The notes under the pieces were generated by a model that worked only from the letters and a program-made list of their open reading frames with translations, had not been told where the DNA came from and did not search any database. A stretch of DNA of 48,988 nt from Escherichia phage JLBYU09. A program made the translations under genes and the position numbers. The stretch lies in the sequence record OK272487.1, one strand, 5' to 3'. Every line of letters starts with the position of its first letter. Within the stretch, counting starts at the first letter, position 1. This document shows, one piece after another, positions 38,841 through 41,443 of this stretch.

Positions 38841-39314
38841 TTAGCAATTAGTGCTTTCAGGTTTATACAGGAATCCTCCAGGCTCATAATCTGACATTCT
38901 TACCACTCGCAACATTTCGCGCTTATCACATCTCTTTGTGAGCGGTTTGCCATTGGAATCAAATCGCAGATCTGGACGACAGAATGATGCGCGATAGCCT
39001 TGACATCCATATTTTTTGTAATCGTTATGCACCTTTTGAGCGCCAGCGGCTGAAATCATACCGCGAACGCGCCACTGATTTACAGTTTGCTGGCTAACGT
39101 TAAGACGCTTTGCCATTGCTGACACGCTGCCGTAATACTCAATAAGAATGTCAAGCCGTGCTTTTAGTCCGGCGCGCACTTCATCTTTTAAAACATAGTA
39201 TCCTGTAGGGCGCTTGCGCTTTTTCTTATCTTTACCCCGTCGAGTTCCGTTATTGCCATTGATTGTGCGTTTGTCAATCTTACCAGTTGATACTGCGATT
39301 CGCTGTTCTTTCAT
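38841..39314 (-). CDS. HTH DNA-binding protein (putative regulator)
   Basis: 157 aa; basic N-terminus; HTH-like VSAMAKRLNVSQQTVNQWRVRG; a reverse copy of the conserved box lies in its leader. Confidence 0.5.
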   Translation of the reverse strand: MKEQRIAVSTGKIDKRTINGNNGTRRGKDKKKRKRPTGYYVLKDEVRAGLKARLDILIEYYGSVSAMAKRLNVSQQTVNQWRVRGMISAAGAQKVHNDYKKYGCQGYRASFCRPDLRFDSNGKPLTKRCDKREMLRVVRMSDYEPGGFLYKPESTNC

Positions 39315-39326
39315 TATTCATTCTCC

Positions 39327-39370
39327 AATAGCATTTTTTGTTAAACGATGATTTAATGATTGTGTATTAT
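39327..39370 (+). promoter_or_regulatory. conserved-box promoter-like element shared by divergent genes (box variant, 18-nt spacer, TATTAT)
   Basis: AATAGCATTTTTTGTTAAAC at 39327-39346; TATTAT at 39365-39370; the same box lies between a minus-strand TATAAT and the RBS of the HTH gene. Confidence 0.5.
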
Positions 39371-39403
39371 ACACGCCAAATGGCATTACTCAAAGGTTTT
39401 AGA

Positions 39404-41443
39404 ATGATTCCAAACATTGAAAAGCAAATATCAGCACTTGGTGAGGCGGTAATTAAATCCATTCAGGAGCGATTCACTGTTGGCGATATTGTGCCTTACC
39501 CTTACCAGTGCGTTGCATACGCTGAGATCGCAAAGCGTATGAAAAATTATGAGCATCCATTCTTTGTTAAAGCGTCCGTATCGGCTGGCAAAACATTGAT
39601 GTTTGCAATGGTTGCTCACCAGTGCCGGAAAATGGGCTTGAAAATGATGGTACTTGCTCGCCAGGCTGAGATTGTGGATCAGGATTCTGAAGAGATAACA
39701 AATCTTGGTGTGCCGAACTCCATCTATTGTGCAGGACTGAAGACAAAAAGCGCATACTTTCCGATCGTTGTTGGCTCTGAGGGAACTGTAGTTAATGGAC
39801 TGTTTAAAGCGCTTGGCGACTATGTTCCGCACGTTATCGGGATTGACGAGTGTCACCAGGTGGATTGGGAAGACCTTGCCGACGCAATAGAGAAAGACGA
39901 ATCATTTTTACAAATGACGACGAAGAAAGGCGAAAAAGTACCAAATCCAGATTATGACATAACTAGCGATAACGAATGCGAAGAGTTTCTGATTGGTGAG
40001 GATGGATTGCCAATGGAGGGAACAGGCCGCACACAATACACTGTCATTATCATGGAAATGATGCGCCGCTGCCGGAAAACATATGGTCATGAACTGCGCA
40101 TCTTTGGTATGACTGGATCAGAGTTTCGCGGCGTGGTTCCGATCCTTGTCGAAGATAAAAAGCAGAAAGGATTCTGGCGCGAACAGGTTACTAATATTGA
40201 CACCAACTACCTGATCAAATTCGGTTCTGTTGTGCCAACAAATTTTGGCGACGTTGGCGATCTAGGGTATGACCTTTCAGAGTTTGAGGCATCCAGTGAG
40301 GATGGCGTTGCAGACTTTGACGCTAAAACGCTTCGCAGGATGGAACAAAAAATTCATGAAGAAGCGACCATGACAAAGCGCATCATGGCGAAAGTTCACG
40401 AGATCTGTAAAAACCGTAACGGCGTACTTGTTACATGTGCAGGAGAAAGGCATTGCAAAGAGGCAGCGGCAGCTTTGCCACCTGGAACGACTTACAGGAT
40501 CATTACTGGTAAGACTGGCGACAACCAGCGCAAGGAGTGGTTGAAGGAAGCATACGAGGGGAAGGTAAAATACATCTTCCAGGTTCAGGCGCTAACAACT
40601 GGCGTTAACGTGCCGTTTTGGGATACGTCGGTTATATTGCGTAAGATTGGATCTCTTACGTTGCTGATTCAGCTTTTAGGGCGCGGAATGCGACTACTTA
40701 AGAAGTGGCATAAGGAGCAAGGATTCCAGAAAGATGATCATCTCGTCATGGATTTTTCAGGAACGATGGACGAGCTAGGGGAGCTTTATTTTGATCCGAT
40801 ACTGGAACAGGCGCAGCACCAGAAGCGATTCAGAAATGGTAAAGATCCGAAGCCTTGTCCTATTTGCGGAACTCTTAACAGCTATTATGCTCGTCGCTGT
40901 ATGCACGTAGACGAAGACGGCAACAGATGCGAGTGGTTCTTTAAATTCAGGACATGTGACGATCAGGTTGACCCACGCACTAAAAAGATTATTCAGCGCG
41001 GTTGTGGAACGAAAAATGATATTGCGGCCAGGGTATGCAGACATTGCGACATGTCATTGATTGACCCTAACGAGAAGTTAAGCGGAAAGCACTACACAAA
41101 AAACGACTGGTTCCAGGTGCAATCTTTCTCGGTTGACATGACGAAAAACCAGAAAGGGATAATATTTAATTATGAGCTTTCCGATGGCATAGACACTTTC
41201 AGGGCGAGAGAGATATTTTTCCCTGAATCTGAGAGCCAAATTTGCCGCGCAAAATGGCGAAGCGTTGCTCTTAAGCACATACCAGATCGCCGCGTTGCTG
41301 GCATGGTGGCGAGCTATCGTAATGCACGAAAAATAATGCAATATGTTAATCACATTATGCCGCCATCGCGTGTGACTCACCGCAAGACTAGCAAGGGCGA
41401 AGATAATTTGTACAAGAAGGAATTTAATTATGGCAATGACTGA
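39404..41443 (+). CDS. superfamily-2 DNA helicase
   Basis: Track ORF 39338..41443; start moved to ATG 39404; Walker A SAGKT, Walker B DECH, C-terminal Cys clusters (CPICG, RRCMH). Confidence 0.75.
   Translation: MIPNIEKQISALGEAVIKSIQERFTVGDIVPYPYQCVAYAEIAKRMKNYEHPFFVKASVSAGKTLMFAMVAHQCRKMGLKMMVLARQAEIVDQDSEEITNLGVPNSIYCAGLKTKSAYFPIVVGSEGTVVNGLFKALGDYVPHVIGIDECHQVDWEDLADAIEKDESFLQMTTKKGEKVPNPDYDITSDNECEEFLIGEDGLPMEGTGRTQYTVIIMEMMRRCRKTYGHELRIFGMTGSEFRGVVPILVEDKKQKGFWREQVTNIDTNYLIKFGSVVPTNFGDVGDLGYDLSEFEASSEDGVADFDAKTLRRMEQKIHEEATMTKRIMAKVHEICKNRNGVLVTCAGERHCKEAAAALPPGTTYRIITGKTGDNQRKEWLKEAYEGKVKYIFQVQALTTGVNVPFWDTSVILRKIGSLTLLIQLLGRGMRLLKKWHKEQGFQKDDHLVMDFSGTMDELGELYFDPILEQAQHQKRFRNGKDPKPCPICGTLNSYYARRCMHVDEDGNRCEWFFKFRTCDDQVDPRTKKIIQRGCGTKNDIAARVCRHCDMSLIDPNEKLSGKHYTKNDWFQVQSFSVDMTKNQKGIIFNYELSDGIDTFRAREIFFPESESQICRAKWRSVALKHIPDRRVAGMVASYRNARKIMQYVNHIMPPSRVTHRKTSKGEDNLYKKEFNYGND

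Follow-up and report, generated by a model that had tools for sequence, protein, structure and literature searches.

How does a single short DNA element come to stand between two genes that are transcribed away from each other, and what might bind to it? The question is raised by positions 39312-39406 of Escherichia phage JLBYU09 (record OK272487.1), where a gene for a helix-turn-helix (HTH) protein and a helicase gene diverge from a junction containing one copy of a box that also occurs elsewhere in the genome. The stretch of DNA analysed, 48,988 nucleotides (nt) long and referred to as the window, is the genome of a T1-like coliphage (Drexlerviridae, Hanrivervirus) and has the same gene order as T1. 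We conclude that the box is very probably the activator-binding element of a promoter family, and that it agrees in sequence and position with the class II marbox, a binding site of the host regulators MarA, SoxS and Rob. All transcription starts given here were predicted from the sequence, promoter positions are stated relative to these predicted starts, and every degree of confidence expressed is based on sequence and comparison only.

One box between two divergent promoters

The junction comprises the following features.

39329-39345, plus strand: junction box TAGCATTTTTTGTTAAA with the marbox core GCATTTTTTGTTAAA at 39331-39345; no mismatches to the 17-base box or to the literature consensus
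39365-39370, plus strand: -10 hexamer TATTAT of the helicase promoter, 19 nt past the box and without a -35 hexamer; predicted start at about 39377
39366-39393, minus strand: sigma70-type promoter of the HTH gene, TTGAGT (39393-39388), 16-nt spacer, TATAAT (39371-39366); predicted start at about 39359
38841-39314, minus strand: HTH gene (157 amino acids, Cro-like), start codon 39314-39312, ribosome-binding site (RBS) GGAGA at 39326-39322
39404-41443, plus strand: helicase gene (ResIII and Helicase_C domains), RBS AAAGG at 39392-39396

A first-pass annotation had described a single box between the two genes, accompanied by TATTAT and a minus-strand TATAAT, and this description proved correct. 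For the helicase promoter the box is in forward orientation, and within the HTH leader it is reversed; 14 nt separate it from the start codon of the HTH gene, and the helicase ATG follows it at 58 nt. Because the minus-strand TATAAT and TTGAGT lie beyond the box, it is situated between the HTH promoter and the RBS and start codon of the HTH gene. The HTH promoter matches 10 of 12 consensus positions and was the sole consensus-type promoter found in the junction by a consensus scan, and the -10 hexamers of the two promoters overlap by 5 bp. In T1 (AY216660), TATTAT follows the box at 20 nt and the HTH promoter reads TTGAAT-17-TATAAT. The helicase ATG at 39404 also agrees with that of T1 (36525, 64 nt past the T1 box), whereas 39356 is annotated in Escherichia phage JLBYU41, which is 100% identical to the window over 38800-42000.

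About 60 distinct sequences upstream of HTH genes, taken from public viral contigs, share one common layout in which the position of the box is kept: a -35-like hexamer overlapping the helicase RBS, TATAAT(A), 20 nt of unconserved sequence, the reverse box, an RBS and ATG. TATAAT stands 20 nt from the box in nearly all relatives and, where the sequence has changed, TAnnnT is still kept on both strands (TATCAT/TATGAT, TACAAT/TATTGT). A conserved palindromic operator for the HTH protein was not found between the -10 hexamer and the box, where the spacer is unconserved; lineage-specific inverted repeats were seen around the -10 hexamer. The earlier proposal that one copy serves both genes and couples HTH and helicase expression is supported, and the arrangement is preserved in some 60 distinct relatives.

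The two promoters point apart and would differ in their demands, the helicase promoter being dependent on the box and the HTH promoter self-sufficient by virtue of its own -35 hexamer. The junction would hold one RNA polymerase at a time, rendering the promoters mutually exclusive, and an activator on the box would therefore favour helicase transcription and shut off that of the HTH gene. The box also corresponds to about +14 to +30 of the HTH leader, such that the HTH transcript would run through the reverse box before reaching the RBS. We infer that the back-to-back promoters act as a switch.

A probable promoter family with fixed geometry

The 17-base consensus of the box, TAGCA[C/T]TTTTTGTTAAA, is not palindromic: the box does not match its own reverse complement. 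When the window was searched with this 17-mer at up to three mismatches, 12 copies were found against 0.5 expected, a number reached in none of 100 shuffles. At the same threshold T1 contains 14 copies and Rtp, which was compared by DNA searches alone, contains 11 (about 0.25 expected). A search of the window with the literature marbox consensus yielded 12 sites without a mismatch and, when one mismatch was allowed, 17, compared with 2.7 expected and again with 0 of 100 shuffles reaching the observed number. This search added four copies that the 17-mer had missed (4867+, 7438+, 33355+ and 38840-), which differ in their central tracts (GAAT, AAAT, TAAT) and have the same -10 spacing.

The forward copies outside the junction are listed here with the distance from the box to the -10 hexamer.

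38840-38856, minus strand: box GCACTAATTGCTAAA of the primase-gene promoter, overlapping the HTH stop codon; TATCAT at 21 nt within a hairpin, followed by a T-run; T1 equivalent at 35978-35992
41847-41863, plus strand: box of the Dam methylase gene promoter; CATAAT at 20 nt; the VRR-NUC gene stops at the TAG of the box
42888-42904, plus strand: forward box; CATAAT at 20 nt
46133-46149, minus strand: forward box; TATATT at 20 nt
48300-48316, minus strand: forward box; TATTAT at 20 nt
1832-1848, minus strand: forward box; TATATT at 20 nt
2709-2725, minus strand: forward box at the head of the leftward early operon; CATAAT at 20 nt
4865-4881, plus strand: forward box of the GAA subtype, GCACGAATTGTTAAA; TATAAT at 19 nt
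6133-6149, plus strand: forward box GCACTTTTTGCAAAA; TATAGT at 20 nt
7436-7452, plus strand: forward box of the GAA subtype; TATAAT at 20 nt
8803-8819, plus strand: forward box; TAAAGT at 20 nt
31846-31862, minus strand: box of the cor-like gene promoter; TATAGT at 19 nt
33353-33369, plus strand: forward box of the AAA subtype, GCACAAATAGCTAAA, upstream of recombination genes; TATAAT at 19 nt

A hexamer of the form [T/C]AnnnT is present 19-21 nt past the box at 15 of the 17 window sites (background 0.098) and at 18 of the 22 T1 sites. Fourteen of 16 copies are forward relative to transcription, each of the fourteen with a -10 hexamer at 19-21 nt, and two are reversed. The hexamers are -10-like (TATAAT, TATAGT, TATTAT, TATATT or CATAAT) and are followed by a short leader, an RBS and ATG. 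A -35 hexamer is absent from the box promoters; the -35 position reads AAAacn. The box itself extends from about -49 to -33, with its 15-bp core centred at about -40. A position matrix built from 33 aligned window and T1 sites shows little or no variation at GCA, G10 and AAA, and in the central tract of the same sites variation is confined to A/T-rich versions. The box is invariant in T1, Rtp, the hanriverviruses, the lineage most remote in the set, with a capsid identity of about 55%, and the record labelled 'Vibrio phage Vc1'. It can be regarded as a genuine regulatory site, as the first-pass annotation had proposed, and as one that bears an orientation.

Several further observations concern the surroundings of the boxes. 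The box-initial TAG is the stop codon of the upstream open reading frame (ORF) in at least five cases (6133, 7436 and 41847 on the plus strand; 46149 and 48316 on the minus strand), and the TAA stop codon of the HTH gene (38841-38843) falls inside the AAA end of the box at 38840, so that promoters are fused with coding ends. Perfect inverted repeats of at least 5 bp surround the -10 hexamer in 16 of 33 box promoters and place it in a hairpin loop (control 17%, maximum 39% in 500 permutations). Examples are 6150-6185, 33370-33400 and 48255-48300 in the window and 1468-1500 and 3553-3585 in T1, the stem sequences differing between promoters. Most of the remaining box promoters have a GC hairpin within the 20-nt spacer, followed by a T-rich -10 hexamer, and several of these are annotated as terminators in T1 records. 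Many box promoters, both here and in T1, share a conserved leader motif, CAYCRAAACGA, that starts about 6 nt past the -10 hexamer, e.g., about 25-40 nt after the boxes at 1832-, 2709-, 6133+, 8803+, 42888+ and 46133-; it may be an initial-transcribed or a translation-enhancing sequence. Promoter geometry and comparison with T1 place the primase start at ATG 38784, as opposed to 38847 in the JLBYU41 annotation. Two T1 copies are without a -10 hexamer at 19-21 nt (8363-8379 and 103-119); one of them is forward and only 16 nt before the ATG of the small-terminase gene, and the other lies near the genome end. Boxes are also found directly upstream of inserted HNH homing-endonuclease genes in Rtp (rtp20, rtp40) and in T1, and in Rtp a forward box driving the extra gene rtp34 stands between the major tail gene and the chaperone gene; positions for these observations are 6317-6333 and 21394-21410 in Rtp and 41957-41973 in T1. 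This hints at a promoter cassette that travels with mobile genes.

Correspondence with the class II marbox

The consensus for sites of MarA, SoxS and Rob is 5'-GCAHWWWWTGYYAAA-3' (PMC6900184), and the phage box (TA-GCACTTTTTGTTAAA) agrees with it at 15 of 15 positions. Class I marboxes are reversed and located upstream, while class II marboxes are forward and overlap the -35 region. The marbox is asymmetric because MarA binds it as a monomer, with one recognition helix for CAC(T) and, 7 bp away, a second for AAA. The invariant GCA, G10 and AAA of the phage box, with a variable centre between them, are what is expected for two recognition helices at this distance.

A structurally studied class II promoter is that of micF, with its site at about -41. 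In E. coli it consists of AGCACTGAATGTCAAAAc, 20 nt and TAGAAT, and the annotated RNA 5' end places the centre of the site at -41. Spacing, orientation and flanks match those of the phage boxes, the spacing being 20 nt in both. The marbox of the mar operon (reverse complement CCACGTTTTGCTAAA) has 13 of 15 bases in common with a phage variant. The fit to the consensus is 15/15 for the phage boxes compared with 14/15 for micF and 13/15 for mar. Like a class II marbox, the phage box is an asymmetric match to the consensus, stands forward over the -35 position, with its centre in the class range of about -36 to -55, and is combined with a sigma70 -10 hexamer and a poor or absent -35 hexamer.

In mechanistic terms, the box would replace the missing -35 hexamer, and an activator at such a class II site would contact region 4 of sigma70 and the C-terminal domain of the alpha subunit. 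A host protein of the MarA/SoxS/Rob group (RamA in Klebsiella) would then activate the early and replication promoters. We give about an even chance to the proposition that MarA, SoxS or Rob binds the box and drives the phage promoters. Rob is the constitutively made member of the group and for this reason the most plausible host activator.

Other known elements were compared with the aligned copies. A sigma54 promoter (TGGCAC-N5-TTGC) was rejected: TAGCAC is without GG, TTG(C/T) is 2 bp too close and a sigma70-type -10 hexamer is present at 20 nt. Sites for IHF, lambda CII (TTGC-N6-TTGC) and the T4 MotA box were ruled out by the spacing or the sequence of the aligned copies.

Reverse copies upstream of structural genes

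The first-pass annotation had also reported reverse copies before the major capsid, tail-chaperone and tail-fibre genes and had placed them in leaders just ahead of the RBS. The relevant features are as follows.

17261-17288, plus strand: capsid-gene promoter, TTGCAC (17261-17266), 16-nt spacer filled by the reverse box (17268-17284), TG-extended -10 hexamer TATCAT (17283-17288); predicted start at about 17295
21002-21044, minus strand: tail-chaperone reverse box as a candidate antisense marbox-type promoter; box 21044-21028, -10 hexamer TAGCAT (21007-21002) exactly 20 nt away; points toward the terminator of the major tail gene; predicted start at about 20995
20972-21000, plus strand: candidate sense promoter of the tail-chaperone gene, TTGCGC (in the terminator hairpin), 17 nt, TACAAT; read from the sequence; predicted start at about 21008
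37795-37808, plus strand: degenerate tail-fibre copy TAGCATTTGCTAAG; 3 nt of the central tract missing, no T1 counterpart

The copies before the capsid and tail-chaperone genes are indeed present, at 17268-17284 and 21028-21044. Their placement in leaders ahead of the RBS holds for the chaperone gene; the capsid copy is more than a leader element, as it fills the promoter spacer. There, the TG of the box forms the extended -10 element, and an imperfect hairpin with a T-rich tail, the RBS GGAGG (17321) and ATG 17332 follow downstream. We take this ATG as the capsid start, as opposed to the GTG at 17290 annotated in JLBYU41. The layout TTGACN/TTGCAC-16-TATNNT with the box in the spacer recurs in most of 71 distinct sequences upstream of capsid genes; the most distant lineage has a degenerate copy in this spacer. 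The T1 counterpart reads TTGACG-16-TATTAT, and a plus-strand promoter is predicted at this place in the T1 GenBank record. The consensus promoter scan of the window did not call the capsid promoter, in which TTGCAC matches at 3 of 6 positions. The capsid copy is reversed and centred at about -20 inside the promoter spacer. A marbox in the promoter spacer represses pbpG, and MarA bound within the core promoter activates flgB P2; we would thus expect repression at the capsid promoter as at pbpG, with activation as at flgB P2 being possible. The hairpin and T-run between capsid promoter and RBS (17289-17320) are kept in most of the closer relatives and imperfect in the window. This structure could terminate upstream transcripts, with capsid transcripts starting inside it, or could serve as a 5' stabiliser.

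In the chaperone leader (about 21008-21058) the reverse box stands just before the RBS GGAGA, with the ATG at 21059. Four lineages whose spacers are unrelated all retain TAnnnT on the antisense strand at 20 nt (TAGCAT, TAAGAT, TATATT, TACAGT). Since the distance is exactly preserved, this copy appears to be the same directional promoter, pointing in the opposite direction. The sense promoter TTGCRC-17-TAnAAT is kept in T1, L207 and L209. An alternative proposed by the consensus scan, TGTACA-16-CATAAT, is not conserved and was rejected. The chaperone locus would repeat the design of the HTH/helicase junction, with an antisense marbox promoter back-to-back with a sense promoter.

A partial tail-fibre copy does exist as a degenerate relic, at 37795-37808 rather than at 37786-37800 as first given. 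We consider it weak because 3 nt of the central tract are missing and because it is absent from T1. On the minus strand the relic reads TGCTATTAT and forms an extended -10 element before the tail-fibre gene. The idea that the box functions independently of orientation finds no support in these data: fourteen forward copies carry a -10 hexamer at 19-21 nt, and the chaperone copy is itself directional, albeit antisense.

Host or phage protein at the box

In principle, the box could be occupied by a host protein or by a protein encoded by the phage. The adjacent HTH protein had been named as a possible binder. It gives weak Pfam matches to YdaS and P22 Cro as well as sequence matches to Cro proteins of known structure. 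Its structural model, which is a confident one (predicted local distance difference test score, pLDDT, 85), comprises a disordered basic arm, one HTH (about residues 64-84) and a small C-terminal domain, and among known structures it most resembles the dimeric Cro proteins of Xfaso 1 (3bd1) and N15. Across 31 homologues the basic arm and the C-terminal part are nearly invariant. The recognition helix, by contrast, changes its residues from genus to genus, and the box stays the same throughout. The N-terminal arm (residues 10-36), (V/I)DKRTxNGNNGTRRGKDKK, is basic; it is conserved more strongly than the recognition helix, and disorder is predicted for it. The box lacks the palindromic half-sites of an operator for dimeric Cro or CI proteins. 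No MarA/SoxS-like protein was detected among 543 six-frame ORFs of the window (phmmer --max; best E 0.39; of the two probes, MarA was checked against PDB 1BL0), and none of the 15 proteins scanned against Pfam contained an AraC-family domain. The protein encoded at 46268-46660 was modelled as well (pLDDT 86) and yielded only weak, winged-helix-like matches (E > 0.3).

We favour host proteins because the HTH protein is Cro-like with a varying recognition helix and because no MarA- or AraC-like phage protein was found. The HTH protein is accordingly not our preferred binder: it has a single HTH of Cro type and a recognition helix that varies, the box is not palindromic and it equals the host marbox in sequence and position.

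Several points weigh against a host activator. Unstressed cells contain little MarA or SoxS, and Rob is for the most part inactive unless an inducer is present; dependence of a fast lytic phage on these proteins would therefore be surprising. Two Drexlerviridae were included in a randomly barcoded transposon sequencing (RB-TnSeq) study in Klebsiella, whose hits as described make no mention of rob, ramA, marA or soxS; redundancy among the four paralogues could hide them in such a screen. The boxes are also kept in the 'Vibrio phage Vc1' record, for which the assigned host is a Vibrio. Finally, many small phage ORFs are uncharacterised, and the product of 46268-46660 might have a winged-helix-like fold.

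The last two points favour binding by a phage-encoded protein, either the adjacent HTH protein as a monomer or an early protein such as that of 46268-46660 as a class II-type activator, with the likeness to the marbox arising by mimicry or convergence. The HTH gene is universally conserved, occurring in 830 phage records and always adjoining a box; the invariant basic arm of its product could add DNA contacts, and repressors of the L5 type bind asymmetric sites as monomers (cited in PMC11447400). Against this stand the single HTH and the dimeric Cro proteins as nearest folds, the constancy of the box in the face of a recognition helix that differs between genera, and the lack of any AraC-like phage protein among those scanned. 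Furthermore, a stoperator function gives no reason why the -10 hexamer should follow at precisely 19-21 nt in 15 of the 17 sites, and a 15/15 fit to the host consensus together with micF spacing would be an improbable coincidence. We therefore regard a phage-encoded binder as possible, though doubtful.

A third explanation, which we judge quite unlikely, dispenses with a regulator: the box would be contacted by RNA polymerase itself, either as an UP-like A/T tract bound by the alpha subunit or through TTGTTA as an odd -35 hexamer. The T-tract followed by AAAA loosely recalls UP elements, as the authors of a re-annotation of phage TLS suggested for its repeat (PMC11447400), and TTGTTA resembles TTGACA. 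Yet the invariant positions extend beyond A/T to GCA and G10, the box occupies -49 to -33 without a -35 hexamer downstream, and TTGTTA at 22 bp from the -10 hexamer is outside the working range of sigma70. The consensus position of an UP element is about -60 to -40, and the box lies about 7-8 bp promoter-proximal of it. A full reverse copy inside the spacer of another promoter would also be left unexplained. An UP element was rejected on the grounds of the invariant GCA and G10 of the box and of the position that the box occupies.

That the box acts in RNA or marks transcript ends, as part of modules of stop codon, hairpin and terminator, is very improbable. In favour of this reading, the TAG of a box is often the upstream stop codon, GC hairpins, several of them annotated terminators in T1 records, follow many boxes and inverted repeats around the -10 hexamer are enriched (16/33 versus 17%), but the boxes 39329+ and 2709- at the heads of divergent operons have no co-directional gene upstream to terminate, hairpins vary in presence and position while the distance from box to -10 hexamer is constant, and reverse copies would read as a different RNA. 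A search of the whole window against Rfam gave no matches at gathering thresholds.

Returning to host activators of the MarA/SoxS/Rob group, a wider scheme can be imagined, to which we assign a low probability. Nearly all early and replication promoters, wired to Mar/Sox/Rob, would read host chemical stress, reverse marboxes would act as brakes on the late (capsid, tail-chaperone) and HTH promoters, and replication would titrate the activator and thus provide a copy-number timer. About 16 sites per genome, multiplied by hundreds of genome copies, would titrate a few thousand activator molecules; titration would therefore turn early promoters off and late promoters on without a phage-encoded late regulator. 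If this were true, phage development would read bile salts, salicylate, oxidants and antibiotics.

Condition of the sequence and its relatives

The window contains patches of N at 1481-1569, 3004-3023, 3867-3886, 6018-6044, 8717-8740, 9122-9142, 37122-37199 and 45918-45957. JLBYU41, a record identical in other respects, is longer; the offset in coordinates between the two rises from 70 to 2358, and the tail-fibre gene, 2397 bp in JLBYU41, is represented in the window by an ORF of about 660 bp. The window looks like an edited or gapped assembly. About 19 GenBank records labelled 'Campylobacter phage' (MG065636 and related entries) show about 96% identity over the 3.2-kb query 38800-42000; these are probably mis-assigned hosts or contaminants.

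Relation to earlier work and to known systems

The repeat itself has been described before. In the 2024 re-annotation of TLS (published in Phage), 21 copies in three subgroups were reported, oriented along transcription and some 76 nt ahead of start codons, together with only three sigma70-like promoters; a stoperator, an enhancer site or an UP element were put forward as its function (PMC11447400). Our literature search found no paper linking T1-like phages with the marbox or with Mar/Sox/Rob. The class II marbox reading, the fixed distance to the -10 hexamer, the reverse copies and the shared back-to-back promoter appear to be new. T1 and the other phages of its large family, the Drexlerviridae, are common laboratory contaminants as well as candidates for phage therapy. 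The marbox reading provides the family with a promoter map and a testable host factor. If it is true, antibiotics, bile or salicylate, as inducers of MarA, SoxS and Rob, could alter the outcome of infection. In addition, promoter geometry corrects the likely start codons of the helicase, primase and capsid genes.

The 21-nt direct repeat of TLS, aaATAGCACnnnTTGnTAAAA, is the same element as the box and is likewise present in T1, Rtp and Rogue1; its bias in orientation and its A/T/G subgroups agree as well. The TLS paper (PMC11447400) makes no mention of a constant distance to the -10 hexamer, of a likeness to the marbox, of reversed copies or of a promoter region shared by divergent genes. With the stoperators of mycobacteriophage L5 the boxes have in common that they are numerous, asymmetric and orientation-biased (14/16) and lie in short intergenic regions. 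However, stoperators block elongation, have no fixed relation to a -10 hexamer and serve the repressor of a temperate phage, whereas the boxes belong to a virulent phage. The constant distance of 19-21 nt to a -10 hexamer speaks against a stoperator, as do the two reverse copies.

T4 middle promoters resemble the box promoters in combining a sigma70 -10 hexamer with an upstream box that replaces the -35 hexamer. The T4 MotA box (TGCTTtA), however, has its centre at about -30, and its use requires the phage proteins MotA and AsiA. The box described here is centred at about -40, differs in sequence and equals a host activator site.

The capsid copy, which ends at the -10 hexamer, has its counterparts in pbpG, where a marbox lies in the spacer of a sigma70-type promoter, and in flgB P2, where it lies in the core promoter; it differs from both as part of a phage late promoter and of a family-wide arrangement. 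The closest likeness is to host class II promoters for MarA, SoxS and Rob (RamA), such as micF: an asymmetric match to GCAHWWWWTGYYAAA, forward orientation at the -35 position, 20 nt from AAA to the -10 hexamer, a centre at about -41 and no good -35 hexamer. What sets the phage sites, whose binding is predicted, apart from these host promoters is their occurrence in a virulent phage at about 14-20 per 49-kb genome, their better fit to the consensus, and the frequent fusion of the box to an upstream stop codon together with a hairpin around the -10 hexamer.

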